From Moorella sp. Hama-1 (lineage in GTDB: Bacteria; Bacillota; DSM-521; Neomoorellales; Neomoorellaceae), in contig NZ_AP024620.1 in the NCBI RefSeq assembly GCF_023734095.1, forward strand, positions 3,259,570 to 3,283,569: a DNA stretch of 24,000 nucleotides, written 5' to 3'. Shown piece by piece: positions 3,303 through 23,010 of this stretch. The notes beneath the pieces were generated by a model that was not told the DNA's origin, did no database searches, and saw only the letters and a list, made by a program, of their open reading frames with translations. How positions within the stretch are numbered: the stretch's first letter is position 1; each line of letters starts with the position of its first letter. Both the position numbers and the translations under genes were made by a program.

Positions 3303-6797
<3,495 letters not shown>

Positions 6798-10464: not shown

Positions 10465-10845
10465 TTATTTAATCTCGACGGTGGCCCCGGCTTCTTCCAG
10501 TTTGGCTTTAATACTTTCGGCCTCTTCTTTGCTGACCTTTTCTTTAACCGGCTTGGGGGCTTCGTCAACCAGGGCCTTGGCTTCCTTCAAGCCCAGGGCG
10601 GTAATCTCGCGGACGACCTTGATGACGTTGATCTTCTTATCGCCGGCCGCCTTCAAGATGACATCAAATTCGGTCTGCTCTTCTGCCGGGGCTTCCGCCG
10701 GGGCAGCAGCACCCGGGGCTACGGCCATGGCCACAGGGGCAGCGGCACTGACGCCGAATTCCTCCTCCAGGGCCTTGACCAGCTCGGATAGTTCCAGAAC
10801 CGTCAAGCCTTTGACGGCTTCGATGATCTCCTGCACCTTGCTCAT
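10465..10845 (-). CDS. rplL: 50S ribosomal protein L7/L12
   Basis: [37 protein letters not shown]...[14 protein letters not shown]; 126 aa. ATG at 10845-10843, behind AAAGGAGGAATTTCCATT. The 194-aa track ORF (to 11049) is a spurious extension into the upstream repeat element. Confidence 0.97.
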
Positions 10846-10856
10846 AATGGAAATTC

Positions 10857-10871
10857 CTCCTTTGAAAATAG
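10857..10871. repeat. Left copy of the 15-nt perfect direct repeat flanking element copy A
   Basis: Plus strand CTCCTTTGAAAATAG, identical to 11212-11226. On the minus strand it reads CTATTTTCAAAGGAG and provides the rplL Shine-Dalgarno. Confidence 0.9.
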
Positions 10872-11211
10872 ACTTCTGCCAAAAATGGTTACAACTTACA
10901 GCAACCGCTGCGGGGCTGGCGGTACAGGTCTCCAGGCTCCGTGGTTCTCGGCGAGCAAACTTAGCGCTCAGCCTTCCTCGGCGGCGGGGGTGGCTCGGCT
11001 GTATCCCTTTGAATAAACGCAGCGGGGAGCGGAACTCTTCGTTCCTCAACTTACGTTACGATCCCCATCCCGTTCACCGCCGCCTCGGTGCGGCTTCGCT
11101 GAGTTTGCTCTGCGCCTCAAACCAAGTCGCCTTCCGCCTGTACTCGCCAGCCCCTTCCCTCAGCCTACATTTTCATTGTTCGCTGGCGGGGGCGTCAGCC
11201 CCCATGAGGGG
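10872..11211. repeat. Unclassified non-coding repeat element, copy A (conserved core about 10872-11175)
   Basis: Homologous to 22412-22701 in the same orientation. A 60-nt block is identical (10912-10971 = 22454-22513), and there are further long identical blocks such as CGATCCCCATCCCGTTCACCGCCGCCTCG. No ORF with a start codon and RBS is present. The strand of any RNA product is unknown, but the element must be co-transcribed on the minus strand within the rplJL mRNA. Confidence 0.85.
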
Positions 11212-11226
11212 CTCCTTTGAAAATAG
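11212..11226. repeat. Right copy of the 15-nt perfect direct repeat flanking element copy A
   Basis: Plus strand CTCCTTTGAAAATAG, identical to 10857-10871. It starts 8 nt beyond the rplJ stop codon. Confidence 0.9.
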
Positions 11227-11233
11227 CGTTCTA

Positions 11234-11764
11234 CTAAGCGGCTTCTTCTTTTTGTTTGCGGATGGCCTCCAGGGCGTAGACCAGGTTGCGGATGTTCCCG
11301 GCCAGGACGTTGACCAGGCCGGCCAGGGGTGCCTGGAAGCCGCCAACCACCCGTCCAAGGAGCTGTTCGCGGGATGGTAGATCCGCCAGGGCTTTGATGT
11401 CACCGGCGCTGATGACCTTACCCTGCAGGACGCCGGCTTTGATCTGGAAGGTCTTGCTGTTACGCACTACCTCATTCAAAATTTTAGCCGGAGCTACCGG
11501 ATCAGTGGCGCTGAAGGCGATAGCTGTGGGACCCTCCAGGTACGGTTCCAAGCCCTCCAGGCCCAGTTCCCGGGCTGCCCGGGCCGTCAGGGTATTTTTG
11601 ACTACTTTGAATTCCACCCCGGCTTCCCGCAGCTGCCGGCGGAGTTTGGTCATCTCCGCTACATTGAGCCCCCGGTAATCCGCCAGGAGCGAGACTATGG
11701 AGGCGCCCAACTTTTCTTTTATTTCATTGGTAGCTTCTACCTTGGCTGCGCGCTGTTTGTTCAC
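11234..11764 (-). CDS. rplJ: 50S ribosomal protein L10
   Basis: 176-aa [62 protein letters not shown].... GTG start (plus-strand cac at 11762-11764) behind GACAGGAGGTGGTAAC. Confidence 0.97.
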
Positions 11765-11934
11765 GTTACCACCTCCTGTCTGCTAAAAAAATTTAAGCCC
11801 CCGCAGACAGGCGAGGGCAATATGCAAGCAACCGTTGGGAACGGTTAACTCCCTTCACCTCGGCAGGCAATTTTAAGCCCCTGGGCACCTGCTGTCTCCG
11901 GTAAAAACGCTATTTAGCTAGGCAGTTTGCCGGC
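11765..11934 (-). promoter_or_regulatory. Probable ribosomal protein L10 leader (autoregulatory 5' UTR of rplJL)
   Basis: A 170-nt structured spacer between rplA and rplJ, where Firmicute L10 leaders sit. On the minus strand it contains two GGGGCTTAAA(A/T)TT motifs, an AACCGTT-CCC-AACGGTT hairpin, and a 9-bp helix CCTGTCTGC...GCAGACAGG. The 3' arm of that helix overlaps the rplJ SD. Assigned from position and motifs only; no covariance model was run. Confidence 0.5.
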
Positions 11935-14132: not shown

Positions 14133-14250
14133 TGTCTGTTTGTTGACGCATTCGGGCCAGATAGGGCCTGAAGTTATATTCTACGCCTGCGGGGCTCTTT
14201 CCTGCTTGTCCGTCTATATTATTGCCGGCTGCCTGGAAATTAACTCCTGC

Positions 14251-14316
14251 GAAATGAGATATGAGATGTGGGAGGTGAGAAGTGGGATTCCTGTAGAAAC
14301 TGGCTGCGCCAGTTTT
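14251..14316. repeat. Heptamer-array/hairpin repeat, half copy (family shared with 16790-16898)
   Basis: Six tandem degenerate heptamers GAAATGA GATATGA GATGTGG GAGGTGA GAAGTGG GATTCCT (14251-14292), followed by the hairpin AAACTGGC-TGC-GCCAGTTT (14297-14315). There is no matching inverted right arm. Confidence 0.7.
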
Positions 14317-16631: not shown

Positions 16632-16707
16632 TGGAGCCCATAACCGGGATTGAACCGGTGACCTCCGCCTTACCAAGGCGACGCTCTACCTACTGAGCTA
16701 TATGGGC
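16632..16707 (-). tRNA. tRNA-Thr (anticodon GGU), CCA encoded
   Basis: Minus strand GCCCATATAGCTCAGTAGGTAGAGCGTCGCCTTGGTAAGGCGGAGGTCACCGGTTCAATCCCGGTTATGGGCTCCA. It folds as a cloverleaf with anticodon loop TTGGTAA. Confidence 0.92.
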
Positions 16708-16708
16708 A

Positions 16709-16784
<76 letters not shown>

Positions 16785-16789
16785 ATATG

Positions 16790-16898
16790 GATATGGGATG
16801 TGAGATGTTAGAGGTGAGATACTTGTTGGAATTGGCTGCGCCAATTCCTATCTTTATAATCCCACTTCTCATATCTCACTTCTCACTTCTCACTTCTC
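16790..16898. repeat. Heptamer-array/hairpin palindromic element filling the tRNA-Tyr/tRNA-fMet spacer
   Basis: The left arm is five heptamers GATATGG GATGTGA GATGTTA GAGGTGA GATACTT (16790-16824). The central perfect hairpin is GGAATTGGC-TGC-GCCAATTCC (16828-16848). The right arm is five inverted heptamers CACTTCT CATATCT CACTTCT CACTTCT CACTTCT (16863-16897). 16795-16821 is complementary to 16872-16898 at 22 of 27 positions, counted by hand. Confidence 0.8.
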
Positions 16899-16901
16899 AA
16901 A

Positions 16902-16987
16902 TGGTGGAGGGGGCTGGATTTGAACCAGCGAAGGCTGCGCCAGCAGATTTACAGTCTGCCCCCTTTGGCCAACTCGGGAACCCCTCC
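16902..16987 (-). tRNA. tRNA-Tyr (anticodon GUA), long variable arm, CCA encoded
   Basis: Minus strand GGAGGGGTTCCCGAGTTGGCCAAAGGGGGCAGACTGTAAATCTGCTGGCGCAGCCTTCGCTGGTTCAAATCCAGCCCCCTCCACCA. The anticodon loop is CTGTAAA and it has a class II variable arm. Confidence 0.92.
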
Positions 16988-20292: not shown

Positions 20293-21729
20293 CTAACTTC
20301 TCTTCCAGCGCGAGCCGCGGGGGGTGTCCTCCAGGGTGATCCCCAGTTCCTTAAGGCGGTCGCGAATGGCATCGGCTGTGGCCCAATCCCGACGCTGGCG
20401 GGCCTCCTGGCGTACCTGGAGGATGAGGTTCATCAGGCCGTCGAGGAGTTCATCGTCCACCTGCCCGGCAGTCCGGCCAAAGAGGCCCAGAACCTCTCCC
20501 CCCAGCCCCTCAAAAACAGTAGCTGCCGTCTTCAGGGTTACCGGATCAATGGCCGCCGTCCCGTTCAGGTAGGTGTTAATCTCCCGGGCCAGGTCATAAA
20601 GGGCGGCCAGGGCCCGGGCCGTATTAAAGTCGTCATCCATGGCGGTCACAAACTCCTGGCGTAATTCTTCCACCCTGCCGGCCAGGGTGGCCCCCCCGGC
20701 CGGGGTCGCTGTTCCCGCCCCGCCGCCCGTTATCTGGCACCGGGCTTCCCCCAGGAGGCGGCGGGTATTCTCCAGGCGCTCCAGGCCCTTTTCGGCTGCT
20801 TGCAGGCCGTCGTCATCAAAGTCAATGGGGCTGCGGTAATGAGTGGCCAGCAGGTAGAGGCGCACCGCCAGGGGGCGGAAACGGCTGCAAATATCCCTCA
20901 CCAGGAAGAAGTTGCCCCGGGATTTGGACATCTTTTCCTGGTTAATGGTTATAAAGCCATTGTGGAGCCAGTAACGGGCAAAGGTGCAACCTGTCTGGGC
21001 CTCCGCCTGGGCTATCTCATTCTCGTGGTGGGGAAAAATGAGGTCGGCACCGCCACCGTGGATATCGAAACCCGGCCCCAGGTATTTAAGGGCCATGGTC
21101 GAGCACTCAATATGCCATCCCGGCCGCCCCGGTCCCCAGGGGCTCTCCCAGGATGGTTCCCCCGGGCTGGCCCCCTTCCACAGGGCAAAATCCAGGGGAT
21201 TGCGTTTGCAGGTATTGACCTCCACCCGCGCCCCGGCCCGCATCTCCCCGGTGGTCCTTCGGGACAGGCGGCCGTAGGCCGGAAATTTAGCCACCTCAAA
21301 ATAAACGTCCCCCCCGGCGGGATAGGCAAAGCCACGCTGGACGAGGGTGTCGATAGCGTCGATAATAGCGTCGATATGCTGGCTGACCCGGGGATACAGG
21401 GTGGCGCGCTTGACGTTCAGGGCGTCGGCGTCCGTAAAGAATTCCCCAATATACCGTTCGGCAATGGTCAGGGGGTCCTGTTGCTCCTCCCGGGCCCGGT
21501 TGATTACCTTATCGTCGATGTCGGTGAAGTTCTGTACATAGAAGACGTCATAGTTACGGTACTCCAAGTAACGGCGGATGGTGTCGAAAACCACCATTGG
21601 CCGGGCGTTACCCAGGTGGATATAGTTATAGGTTGTCGGACCGCAGACATACATGCGCACCCGGCCCGGTTCAGCCGGTATAAACTCTTCCTTGCTTCCC
21701 GTCAGGGTATTGTAGAGATAAATGCCCAT
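20293..21729 (-). CDS. cysS: Cysteine--tRNA ligase
   Basis: 478 aa from ATG 21729-21727 ([44 protein letters not shown]...). It has the HIGN (HIGH-type) and KMSKS motifs and ends ...GSRWKRS. RBS TGGAGGCCGAAAAGG. The 511-aa track ORF adds a spurious 33-aa N-terminus. Confidence 0.96.
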
Positions 21730-22405
21730 CCTTTTCGGCCTCCAGTTCTTCAACCCTTTGCTCCAAACGCTGGATTTGGCGTTGCAGGCAGAGGAGCATC
21801 TCCGCCACCGGGTCCGGCAGTTCTTCATGGCGGAGGTCTACGGCACTCACTTCGGCATCGGCAATTTTGCGGCCGTTACGTACCACCACTTTCCCCGGCA
21901 CGCCGACCACGGTGCAGTTGGGTGGTACATCCCTAAGGACGACGGAACCGGCGCCGATCTTGACGTTGTCACCGATGGTGATGTTGCCTAAAACCTTGGC
22001 CCCGGCGCTGATTACTACGTTATTACCAATGGTGGGGTGGCGTTTACCCTTCTCTTTGCCGGTGCCCCCCAGGGTAACCCCCTGGTAAAGGGTAACGTTA
22101 TTGCCCACTTCAGCTGTTTCGCCAATGATGACACCCATACCGTGATCGATAAAGATCCCTTCTCCCAGTTTGGCCCCCGGGTGGATCTCAATACCCGTCA
22201 GGAAGCGATTGATCTGGGAGATAATCCGGGCCAGCAGGATCAGGCCCCGGCGGTAACAGGCATGGGCCAGGCGATGGAGGATCAGGGCATGGAAACCCGG
22301 GTAGCAGAGGATGACCTCCAGGAGGCTGTGGGCCGCCGGATCCCGCTGGAAGACAACTTCAATATCCTTCTTTAACCGCCGCCACAAGGTCTTCATCTCC
22401 TCCAA
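21671..22405 (-). CDS. cysE: Serine O-acetyltransferase
   Basis: [30 protein letters not shown]...[60 protein letters not shown] shows the hexapeptide repeats typical of CysE. The start is ambiguous: TTG at 22405, as in the track, or ATG at 22396. The GGAGGAG purine run abuts the ATG. The 3' end overlaps cysS by 59 nt. Confidence 0.92.
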
Positions 22406-22411
22406 AAATAG

Positions 22412-22701
22412 GGTTCTGGCAAAAATGGATTCTTATGGTAAGCATTTGGCTAGGGGGCTGGCGGTACAGGTCTCCAGGCTCCGTGGTTCTCGGCGAGCAA
22501 ACTTAGCGCTCAGTTGCTTAAGCCGCGGGGGTGGCTTTACATTATTTCATAAGAATAAGCGCAGCGGGGAGCGGAGCTCTTCGTTCCTTAATTTACGTTC
22601 CGATCCCCATCCCGTTCACCGCCGCCTCGCTTCGGCTTCGCGCAAGTATCTAGCGCCTCAAACCCTGTACCGGCCAGCCCCTTCCCTCAGCCTGCATTTC
22701 G
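22412..22701. repeat. Unclassified non-coding repeat element, copy B
   Basis: Homologous to and co-oriented with 10872-11175. It has the identical 60-nt block 22454-22513 and the same inverted-repeat pair (22454-22470 / 22664-22681). It occupies the gap between the T-box terminator and the cysE start codon. Confidence 0.85.
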
Positions 22702-22711
22702 CCGGGCAGGC

Positions 22712-22972
22712 TAAAATAAAAGCCCCCTCTCCGGTCAGGGACGAGGGGTTCTCGTGGTTCCACCCTGGTTGAGGATTGCTCCTCCACTCAACGGGTAATA
22801 ATTTCCCGGGCCGTAACGGGGCCTGCCGGCAGGACCTACTCCCTCAAAAATTTCAGCCCTGCAGCTCCCAGGTGCATTTCAACGCCCGGTGTATCCAGGG
22901 CCACTTCCAGCCGCCGGTGGTCCCTCTCTGGTGATTCCCGGTACGCTTACTCTCCTGTTCCTCGCTATTAAT
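22712..22972 (-). promoter_or_regulatory. T-box riboswitch leader with Cys (UGC) specifier, including its terminator (hairpin 22723-22748 plus U tract)
   Basis: The minus strand shows Stem I elements (AGCGAGGAACAGGAGAGTA, CCAGAGAGGGACC...GGCGGCTGGAAG). The specifier-loop sequence is GAAATGCA, with the UGC codon at 22876-22874. The conserved T-box sequence is AACCAGGGTGGAACCACGAG (22770-22751). The terminator is CCCCTC...GAGGGGG-CTTTTATTTT. A Cys T-box upstream of cysE-cysS is the known Bacillus arrangement. Confidence 0.85.
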
Positions 22973-22980
22973 ACAGGGTA

Positions 22981-23010
22981 ATTATAAACCGGGGGCGACT
23001 GTACTGTCAA
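22981..23010 (-). promoter_or_regulatory. Near-consensus sigma-A promoter for the T-box/cysES transcript
   Basis: The minus strand reads TTGACA (23010-23005), then an 18-nt spacer, then TATAAT (22986-22981). The -35 lies inside the ispF coding sequence and the -10 overlaps the ispF stop codon. Confidence 0.6.

Follow-up and report, generated by a model that had tools for sequence, protein, structure and literature searches.

The 24,000-nt stretch of Moorella sp. Hama-1 DNA analysed here (the window) carries the cysE-cysS operon on its minus strand. Read in the direction of transcription, a promoter-like site, a T-box leader and the T-box terminator are followed by about 315 nt of non-coding DNA, then by GGAGGAG (22403-22397) and the ATG of cysE at 22396. 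The features of this locus, including the repeat described below, are listed by position.

22981..23010, minus strand: promoter-like site of the cysE-cysS operon, TTGACA, 18 nt, TATAAT, with 12/12 matches to consensus
22734..22971, minus strand: T-box leader, specifier UGC (Cys), Rfam RF00230
22713..22741, minus strand: T-box terminator, stem 22741-22724, T tract 22721-22713, conserved in relatives
22700..22712, minus strand: junction segment AGCCTGCCCGGCG, 13 nt, not present in relatives
22397..22699, minus strand: copy B of the repeat family, model positions 44-356, nhmmer 246 bits, E 6.6e-74
22454..22681, minus strand: quasi-palindromic core of copy B with the inverted repeats GGGGCTGGCCGGTACAGG (22681-22664) and CCTGTACCGCCAGCCCC (22470-22454)
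22397..22428, minus strand: conserved tail of copy B, CCATTTTTGCCAGAACCCTATTTTTGGAGGAG, a degenerate unit followed by a unit resembling a ribosome-binding site (RBS-like unit), with the Shine-Dalgarno (SD) sequence GGAGGAG at 22403-22397
21671..22396, minus strand: cysE, start candidates ATG 22396-22394 and TTG 22387-22385

The leader matched the covariance model of RF00230 over its full length (1-219) with 99.8 bits against a gathering score of 93, and the features of T-box membership are present, namely a score above gathering, a terminator hairpin with its T tract, and a specifier codon. The specifier-loop alignment, GAAAUGCACC, was read from the sequence as UGC for Cys followed by A, and the specifier region is consistent with a Cys (UGC) T-box. 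At the other end of the leader, GGAGG stands only 2 nt before ATG 22396, so the SD does abut this codon, as had been remarked in the preliminary description; in M. thermoacetica, GGAGG lies 8 nt ahead of the cysE ATG. TTG 22387 stands 11 nt past GGAGG, coincides with the start position of the 238-aa CysE orthologues and is a credible alternative start. It takes the place of TTG 22405, which had been proposed earlier and is an ORF-finder artefact with no SD upstream.

Two copies of one repeat in the window

The repeat in the cysE leader (copy B) was scored with an nhmmer profile built from eight full-length copies, among which copy A, the second copy in the window, was included and copy B was left out. 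Copy A lies in the ribosomal protein operon.

10856..11215, minus strand: copy A, full length (model 1-357), between rplJ (11234-11764) and rplL (10465-10845)
11154-11137 and 10928-10912, minus strand: core inverted repeats of copy A
11212..11226, minus strand: 5' copy of the 15-nt direct repeat CTATTTTCAAAGGAG flanking copy A, a perfect repeat
10857..10871, minus strand: 3' copy of the same 15-nt direct repeat CTATTTTCAAAGGAG, which acts as the rplL SD region

Copy A scored 381 bits over model positions 1-357 of this profile, and the E value of 6.6e-74 for copy B confirms the earlier proposal that a second copy of the element sits between the Cys T-box terminator and the cysE start. When the two copies were aligned pairwise over about 300 nt, identical-rich runs of 65 nt at 97%, 89 nt at 92% and 36 nt at 92% were found, and several indels separate the two copies; the stretch sharing these runs in the rplJ-rplL spacer is 10857-11237, on the same strand as copy B. 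This similarity is far beyond chance. Both copies lie on the minus strand, which is that of their genes, and so have the same orientation relative to the host operon, as had been described; the junctions quoted at that time, CTTTTATTTTAG and CCCTATTTTTGG, and the 3' ends of the two copies, CCATTTTTGGCAGAAGTCTATTTTCAAAGGAGG and CCATTTTTGCCAGAACCCTATTTTTGGAGGAG, were likewise recovered from the sequence.

The boundaries of copy B, formerly placed at 22406-22711, needed correction. At the 22406 side the homology continues through the SD to 22397, and at the other side clear homology begins at 22699, so that 22711/22712 holds only if AGCCTGCCCGGCG is a remnant of the element. This segment (22700-22712) pairs in the predicted RNA fold with GCAGGCT of the element as a 7-bp hairpin and may be a degenerate remnant of the 5' module of the family; copy B probably extends as far as 22712. 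The element had been described as ending just 5' of the SD, but the SD is not purely the host's, as the conserved 3' end of the element includes or regenerates a U-rich stretch and the SD. Missing from copy B are the 5' GC-hairpin module and 14 nt of the left arm. No other core of the set has diverged further (84% identity to its nearest relative), and copy B thus looks old and partly decayed.

Empty sites in relatives

For cysE, we compared the window with two M. thermoacetica strains (CP017237 and CP017019), M. sulfitireducens and one JGI metagenome contig, whose CysE proteins are 92% (M. thermoacetica) or 86% (M. sulfitireducens and the JGI contig) identical to that of the window. The ispF-cysE spacer is 585 nt long in the window as against 320 nt in both M. 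thermoacetica strains and 297 nt in M. sulfitireducens. In the leader alignment the extra stretch of about 300 nt occurs in the window alone; the leaders of all four relatives, the JGI contig included, have the same promoter, T-box and terminator without it. The rplJ-rplL spacer is 388 nt in the window and 33 nt in M. naiadis and in contigs encoding an identical RplL; CysE and RplL of the window map to contig BFFN01000009.1 of assembly GCA_003116935.1. Because relatives have empty sites, the element is an insertion at cysE and at rplJ-rplL, which agrees with the preliminary description in its choice of an insertion over a lineage-wide part of the cysE leader.

The relative whose rplJ-rplL site is empty has a copy directly past the rplL terminator instead (locus L047; loci of the family are numbered in this way), a spot that is the rpoB promoter region both in the window and in M. 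naiadis. Among the fetched loci, no insertion site was common to the copies of M. naiadis and those of M. thermoacetica DSM 21394. The empty rplL site of M. naiadis and the empty cysE site of M. thermoacetica each already hold one tail-like unit, which in the latter reads GAAGAGCTATTTTTTAGGAGGAG and which M. sulfitireducens does not have. Judged from these sequences, such a unit could be either a preferred target or the scar of an earlier copy. The ancestral joint that had been reconstructed from the flanks of copy B fits only in part: it resembles the leader of M. sulfitireducens, in which the T tract is followed directly by AGGGGGAGG, but the closest relative, M. thermoacetica, has an extra 27-nt RBS-like unit there.

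Size and range of the family

An exact 20-mer of the core matched 45 stretches in the representative genomes of 185,579 species. Thirty-six of these are Moorella loci (29 in M. naiadis, 6 in M. thermoacetica DSM 21394 and 1 in Neomoorella sulfitireducens), and the remaining 9 had no further similarity to the element. Extra copies in the flanks of the loci point to roughly two more per 100 kb, a rough figure that comes from few events. A metagenome scan for the tail returned four loci, two with family sequence (tail plus partial modules) and two chance-like. In the searches made, the multi-copy family was thus seen only in Moorella/Neomoorella.

Several origins were considered for the repeat. 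Against Rfam 15, the interval 22300-22800 gave no match up to E 10 beyond the T-box and chance-level ones, the variant copy L035 gave nothing, and no match reached gathering score over 18 loci (144 kb); a known RNA family was accordingly rejected for both element types and these loci. Phage or plasmid origin was rejected after blastn against phages and plasmids returned no match, and viral contigs contained no exact match to the core, tail or 5' module patterns. Protein coding was rejected as well: both strands have long ORFs running through the copies, but indels of 1-14 nt are frequent between copies, and these ORFs cluster solely through their overlap with the repeat. In about 300 kb of loci, the copies had no recurrent ORF, transposase or recombinase as a neighbour, and an autonomous partner, sought through 5' modules or tails without their counterpart and through ORFs recurring next to copies, was not found. 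Full-text literature searches found no account of such a repeat in Moorella. The family is previously undescribed; it is in neither Rfam nor the searched literature, and belongs to no named family.

Anatomy of a full member

A full copy measures about 300-360 bp and consists of five parts, given here 5' to 3' on the strand of the downstream gene.

Part 1: RBS-like unit, (A)GAAnnCTATTTTCGGAGGAG, also written AGAAnnCTATTTTCGGAGGAG
Part 2: 55-nt 5' module, GAGCCCCTCATGGGGGCTGACGCCCCCGCCACGAAG.ATGAAAATG
Part 3: core, a 245-bp imperfect palindrome closed by the 18-bp inverted repeats GGGGCTGGCGGGTACAGG / CCTGTACCCGCCAGCCCC
Part 4: spacer, hypervariable in length and sequence
Part 5: tail, CCATTTTTGGYAGAAnn plus a second RBS-like unit, CTATTTTCGGAGGA

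The outer ends are therefore direct RBS-like units, and the 18-bp inverted repeats bound the inner core alone. The 5' module comprises two mutually exclusive GC hairpins (GAGCCCCTCATGGGGGCTGACGCCCCC), as its GGGGGC is able to pair upstream or downstream, followed by ACGAAG.ATGAAAATG. In the second RBS-like unit GGAGG lies a few nt ahead of the start codon of the host gene, and from its sequence the tail reads like two tandem 17-nt units, the upstream one without its SD. Across 36 copies, the stretches GGCGACTTGGTTCGAGGCG and GCTGAGCGC.AAGTTTGCT.GCCGAGAACCAC are near-invariant and a tandem G-A mismatch in the stem is conserved. Deletion derivatives also occur, in the form of solo units, core-less frames and one internally deleted copy, and the 5' start points of copies vary (model positions 1, 5, 9, 10, 15, 22, 28, 30, 31, 40, 41, 44 and others).

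Three candidate functions within this frame were tried and rejected. No sense-strand promoter-like site was found in either window copy, which speaks against an element-borne promoter. In copy A the tail had been flagged as holding a conserved hairpin or intrinsic terminator, but the spacer folds of 17 copies were no better than shuffles (mean z = 0.09). An ATG or GTG stands 6 nt past the upstream GGAGGAG in about 15 of the 19 5' modules; a leader peptide was rejected because frame and length past this codon are not conserved.

Position relative to start codons

When ORFs of at least 60 aa were counted, 24 of the 28 tails had a same-orientation ORF start within -6..+30 nt, mostly at 2-13 nt, compared with 30% of random positions in the same DNA. 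The site preference suggested in the preliminary description is thus borne out by the other copies, whose placement is non-random. The distance from tail end to start codon ranges from 1 to about 18 nt, and given this variable spacing between SD and start, the start codon belongs to the host and not to the element. The downstream genes are functionally unrelated, with rplL, cysE and a gene for an Lrp-type regulator among them, and others which, from their N-termini read by eye, we take to be thiI-, hisG-, glyA-, ogt- and rseP-like. The order of T-box, element and gene recurs once more in M. naiadis, where a full copy lies between a second T-box (79 bits, E 2.5e-17) and its gene (L014); this case is independent of that at cysE.

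The palindromic core

Because the element always lies in sense orientation with its gene and ends in an SD, it could be regarded as a functional cis-acting structured RNA, that is, a leader acting in translation, stability or processing (an RNase III module or a thermosensor, for example) that is selected upstream of many genes and is not selfish. The near-invariant stretches and the conserved tandem G-A mismatch of the 36 copies would suit this explanation, as would the fold of copy A, which differs strongly from shuffles (z = -6.95), and the fact that an essential ribosomal operon tolerates the element. There is also a slight bias towards the sense strand: over 85 consensus pairs, G-U was counted 187 times and A-C 148 times, and 25 of the 36 copies were predicted to be more stable in sense. 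Nevertheless, this asymmetry is weak (ratio 1.26; mean difference 4.6 kcal/mol), copy B folds equally well in sense and antisense, and only 10 of the 85 pairs show two Watson-Crick types, so that strand-specific RNA selection on the core was rejected. The downstream genes have no common function, close relatives differ in the presence or absence of the element, and at least five copies have an inverted core, others a replaced one or none, with the gene context unchanged. We therefore consider a selected structured RNA unlikely. The core behaves as a separable DNA palindrome and not as a strand-specific RNA. In the cysE leader, the predicted fold energy is about -98 kcal/mol for the core alone and -121 kcal/mol for a 326-nt region.

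The exchange of cores is seen in several forms. Four copies (L002, L015, L024, L030) have an interior inverted precisely from one 18-bp repeat to the other, with the 5' module and tail still oriented like the gene; L001 and the rplL-rpoB copy of L047 look likewise inverted. The inverted cores are most closely related to cores in standard orientation, so that inversion must have happened independently at least three times. Some copies, with L006 as the example, contain another palindrome type of about 190 nt, closed by GGGTGAGGCAGGTTCCCGG.GGGCGCC. A single hybrid, in which the left half of core A is joined to core C, occurs at four loci (L026, L032, L035, L044), and four hybrids of one architecture at four loci indicate that the whole frame, and not the core alone, gets copied. 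Some copies have no core at all and keep their gene context regardless. A core-less frame at cmk-plsC in a metagenome contig appears to occupy the site of the full copy L033, a placement made because the start of the downstream gene is similar.

These inversions raise the question of whether the core is an invertible DNA segment that a site-specific recombinase flips between the 18-bp repeats, so that each copy would act as a switch. The exact inversions and their independent origins are what such a segment would produce, but rare homologous exchange between the 18-bp repeats, or a nested palindrome that inserts either way, would fit equally well. Both orientations were seen at different loci only and never at one; for the window strain, the public contigs that contain rplJ or rplL all break inside the element and are uninformative on this point, as an inversion at one locus would not be visible there. 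Moreover, neither orientation holds a promoter-like site, the interior is nearly palindromic so that a flip alters little, and no invertase gene recurs near the copies. A recombinase-driven switch is in our judgement very unlikely.

Junctions and flanking repeats

The 5' junctions of full copies are T-rich and mostly end in GGAG, and copy B and the L047 copy lie directly past a terminator T tract, with four further copies (L014, L016, L020, L031) within about 30 nt of one; this is in line with the T-rich target inferred earlier from the two window copies. The preliminary description had also found that the junctions of copy B share only TATTTT. This is correct as a reading of copy B, in which the 5' module has been lost through decay, but it is not typical, as copy A is flanked by the perfect 15-nt repeat CTATTTTCAAAGGAG. 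This repeat deviates from the family consensus CGGAGGA and equals the native rplL RBS region, which reads GAGAAGTCTATTTTCAAAGGAGG in M. naiadis and AACAATTTTTAAAGGAG in M. sulfitireducens, and it looks, from these sequences, like a long target duplication. In three other copies (L040, L042, L023), atypical unit variants are common to both ends of the same copy. Over 13 full copies, however, the similarity within a copy's own pair of flanking repeats was barely above that across pairs (permutation p = 0.046), and a simple target-site duplication is thus not established for the family. An AGAAnn prefix is common to many upstream units and the tail, and solo units also occur at other places. Three origins are thus conceivable for the flanking units: duplication of the target, a site at which the element prefers to land, or a scar that remained when the body was deleted between direct repeats.

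The asymmetric ends, the constant orientation and the missing terminal inverted repeats would be explained if the element were derived from a palindrome-associated transposable element of the IS200/IS605 type, mobile as single-stranded DNA and inserted strand-specifically 3' of a short target such as GGAG. A GC hairpin lies at the very left end, GGAG closes the left flank of most full copies, and the window copies are all on the strand of the genes. On the other hand, direct repeats of 13-22 nt flank the copies, a feature that this IS family does not generate; the spacer folds given above lend no support to a right-end hairpin, and no TnpA or TnpB gene adjoins any copy. The orientation also tracks the start codon at single-nucleotide scale, which a replication-strand bias alone would not produce. 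This origin seems to us highly improbable.

Transposition through an RNA intermediate, in which target-primed reverse transcription would start from a U-rich, SD-containing transcript tail annealed to RBS-like DNA, would account for the constant 3' end and variable 5' start points, for the sense orientation in transcribed leaders and for the resemblance of both the long direct repeats and the empty sites to the element tail, but it is exceedingly improbable, as many copies that seem 5'-truncated keep the upstream unit and are internally deleted instead (L023, L039, L031b), which removes truncation as a sign of reverse transcription, about ten copies begin at one discrete point, the core boundary, and no reverse transcriptase is linked to the family.

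Discussion

The element is a multi-copy, non-coding and promoter-less insertion that occupies different sites in different species and stands in sense orientation before unrelated start codons. It is tolerated even between rplJ and rplL, and the host operons should keep working. Taken together with the empty sites, the modular anatomy and the exchangeable core, these findings make it probable that copy B belongs, as an old and partly decayed member, to a non-autonomous, modular, MITE-like and RBS-tied repeat family that is restricted to Moorella and whose copies are co-transcribed with the gene behind them. The insertion proposed in the preliminary description is supported, with corrections to its boundaries, its flanking repeats and the alternative start.

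The closest functional analogue is the class of the Neisseria REP2 repeats and the IR sequences of Borrelia plasmids. Both are described as multi-copy sequences with internal stem-loops and no terminal inverted repeats, which lie directly upstream of varied ORFs and supply the RBS that the gene uses, in the treatment they receive in Delihas (2011, PMC3184786). The Moorella element resembles them in lying directly upstream of ORFs (24/28 tails against the 30% control) and in holding GGAGG within its conserved tail. REP2 further includes a promoter and the start ATG and is associated with a set of co-regulated genes, whereas the Moorella element has no promoter-like site and uses the ATG of the host. 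It also differs from REP2 in its 245-bp invertible or exchangeable palindrome and in its location inside operons and behind T-box terminators. REP2 is about 120-150 bp in size, and the Moorella element, at 300-360 bp, is about twice as long. No sequence relation is expected because the phyla differ.

Palindromic intergenic repeats that are co-transcribed with genes, such as Correia/NEMIS, ERIC, RUP and Nezha, have been described in other bacteria (as outlined in Delihas 2011, PMC3184786). The Moorella element is similar to MITEs in having no transposase, tens of copies, stable long hairpins, filled and empty sites and a transcribed intergenic location, and probably also in its effects on mRNA processing. 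Classical MITEs have inverted repeats at their very ends, make short target duplications of fixed length and insert in either orientation; in contrast, the Moorella element has outer direct RBS-like units of about 15-22 nt and an orientation fixed to the downstream gene. It is therefore not a textbook MITE, as its ends are not inverted repeats.

Invertons of Bacteroides and Clostridioides are invertible promoter segments bounded by inverted repeats upstream of genes. The Moorella core is comparable in that homologous repeat-bounded segments lie upstream of genes and occur in both orientations within the family; it is unlike invertons in having no internal promoter and a near-palindromic interior, with no invertase found and the two orientations never seen at one locus. 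Strand-specific insertion at a structured or T-rich landmark is also known from class C group II introns and from IS elements homing to terminators or REP sequences. Here the position of copy B and the L047 copy directly past a terminator T tract, with four more copies within about 30 nt of one, is reminiscent of such targeting. In contrast to class C introns and IS110-type elements, the Moorella repeat has no corresponding sequence signature, no Rfam match and no encoded protein. REP sequences are named as the targets of IS621 and IS1397 in Delihas (2011, PMC3184786).

For the RBS-tied repeat family that we favour, we propose the following course of events. An enzyme supplied in trans would place the element in T-rich DNA beside an SD or a terminator tail, and the element would either duplicate the RBS region, as the 15-nt repeat of copy A suggests, or recombine at a unit resembling its own tail. 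Since the 3' end of the element is or regenerates the U-rich leader and SD, the downstream gene would keep both right past the insertion and stay translatable, and the element would then be co-transcribed passively with it. At cysE, tRNA-Cys-dependent read-through would still decide transcription, and T-box control should be unchanged because the promoter, T-box leader and terminator are intact and conserved. Read-through transcripts would cross a long stable hairpin before reaching the SD that abuts ATG 22396, and because the SD now abuts this ATG, translation may begin at TTG 22387 instead. By analogy with Correia and ERIC elements, the long duplex in the cysE leader would be a likely, or at least plausible, RNase III substrate.

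A bolder version of the same idea is that the members are mobile RBS cassettes spread over the whole genome, which home by tail similarity and replace the sites they disrupt, and that their core is actively flipped or exchanged between the 18-bp repeats. We think this decidedly unlikely; if true, the 5' leaders of housekeeping genes, T-box-controlled and ribosomal operons included, would contain heritable switches by the dozen.

The insertion accounts for the odd 585-nt cysE leader and the 388-nt rplJ-rplL spacer, and corrects the annotation of the leader and of the cysE start. The family also breaks short-read assemblies of Moorella, as several public contigs end within the element. Moorella is an industrial acetogen, and the engineering of expression and the interpretation of transcriptomes in this genus have to take account of elements placed between a regulatory leader and a start codon. 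The family further offers a natural experiment on three points: how a carried or regenerated SD renders an insertion harmless, how a riboswitch-type leader tolerates 300 nt of hairpin past its terminator, and whether nested palindromes flip in vivo.

Full copy within the ribosomal operon

The repeat element that we describe here, a Moorella-restricted intergenic sequence, has a full-length copy (copy A) inside the essential rplJ-rplL ribosomal operon:

10857-11226 of the window, minus strand, full copy A, 360 nt

Copy A begins 8 nt past the rplJ stop codon and its 3' end is the Shine-Dalgarno (SD) sequence of rplL. The L10 leader (RF00557, window 11782-11919) lies intact upstream of it. Because a full copy resides in this essential operon with the rplL SD at its end, there is strong evidence that the element in sense orientation neither terminates transcription nor blocks translation.

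A relative represented by an ENA contig (ERZ3623612, L047), whose RplL is identical, lacks the element at the rplJ-rplL site. It carries an inverted-core copy (3382-3604) immediately 3' of the rplL terminator T tract, with the junction TTTTATTTATAT|CACCGGAGCC..., and the contig terminates within this element; the same arrangement was found at L050 and L052-L055. In the window and in M. naiadis, this position is occupied by the promoter-like TTGACA region of rpoB.

Core types and the 5' module

A second palindromic core, which is closed by GGGTGAGGCAGGTTCCCGG.GGGCGCC and is about 190 nt long, occurs in the same frame of 5' module and tail, and Rfam gave no match for this core type (core C):

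L006 25-330, minus strand, core C
L026, L032, L035 and L044, hybrids of core A (left half) and core C
L041 5640-5829, core C

Hybrid cores, in which the left half of the standard palindrome (core A) is joined to core C, were found in these 4 copies (L026, L032, L035 and L044). The frame also occurs without a core in the cmk-plsC spacer of a metagenome contig (L071 1525-1640, minus strand), where about 30 nt lead from the 5' module to the tail, and this appears to be the same site that holds a full element in M. naiadis (L033 6267-6626).

In full copies, about 15 of the 19 5' modules contain an ATG (or GTG) 6 nt past the upstream GGAGGAG, as at window 11200-11170 (minus strand), and the short ORF that follows varies in length, reading MGADAPASEQ* in copy A. 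Since this ATG is also within the loop of a GC hairpin, the cause of its conservation may be structural.

T-box and cysE leaders

In M. naiadis (L014 2891-3520), a full element separates a T-box leader (79 bits, under the gathering score; E 2.5e-17) from genes for an Lrp-type regulator and an aminotransferase downstream. This is a second instance in which the element comes after a T-box terminator and before the associated gene. The "empty" cysE leader of M. thermoacetica (L057/L058 1440-1500) holds an RBS-like unit on its own, together with tandem SD-like repeats (GAAGAGCTATTTTTTAGGAGGAGGAGAAGGAGATG). Both are absent from M. sulfitireducens and may mark either a landing site or the scar of an earlier copy. 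In the window genome, the last part of the cysE reading frame and the start of cysS share 59 nt (window 21671-21730, minus strand; L056 3668-3726), and relatives are annotated with the same overlap.

Repeats and genome assembly

The window also contains a purine-rich repeat (GATATGAGATGTGGGAGGTGAGAAGTGGGATT...) unrelated to the element (14248-14314 and 16790-16899), whose copies, both direct and inverted, are separated by about 2.5 kb and lie beside a tRNA cluster (16635-16987).

In public assemblies of the window strain or its near relatives, contigs end within copy A (L048 1-146, L049 1-67, and the 3' ends of L074/L075); thus, this repeat family fragments short-read assemblies of Moorella.
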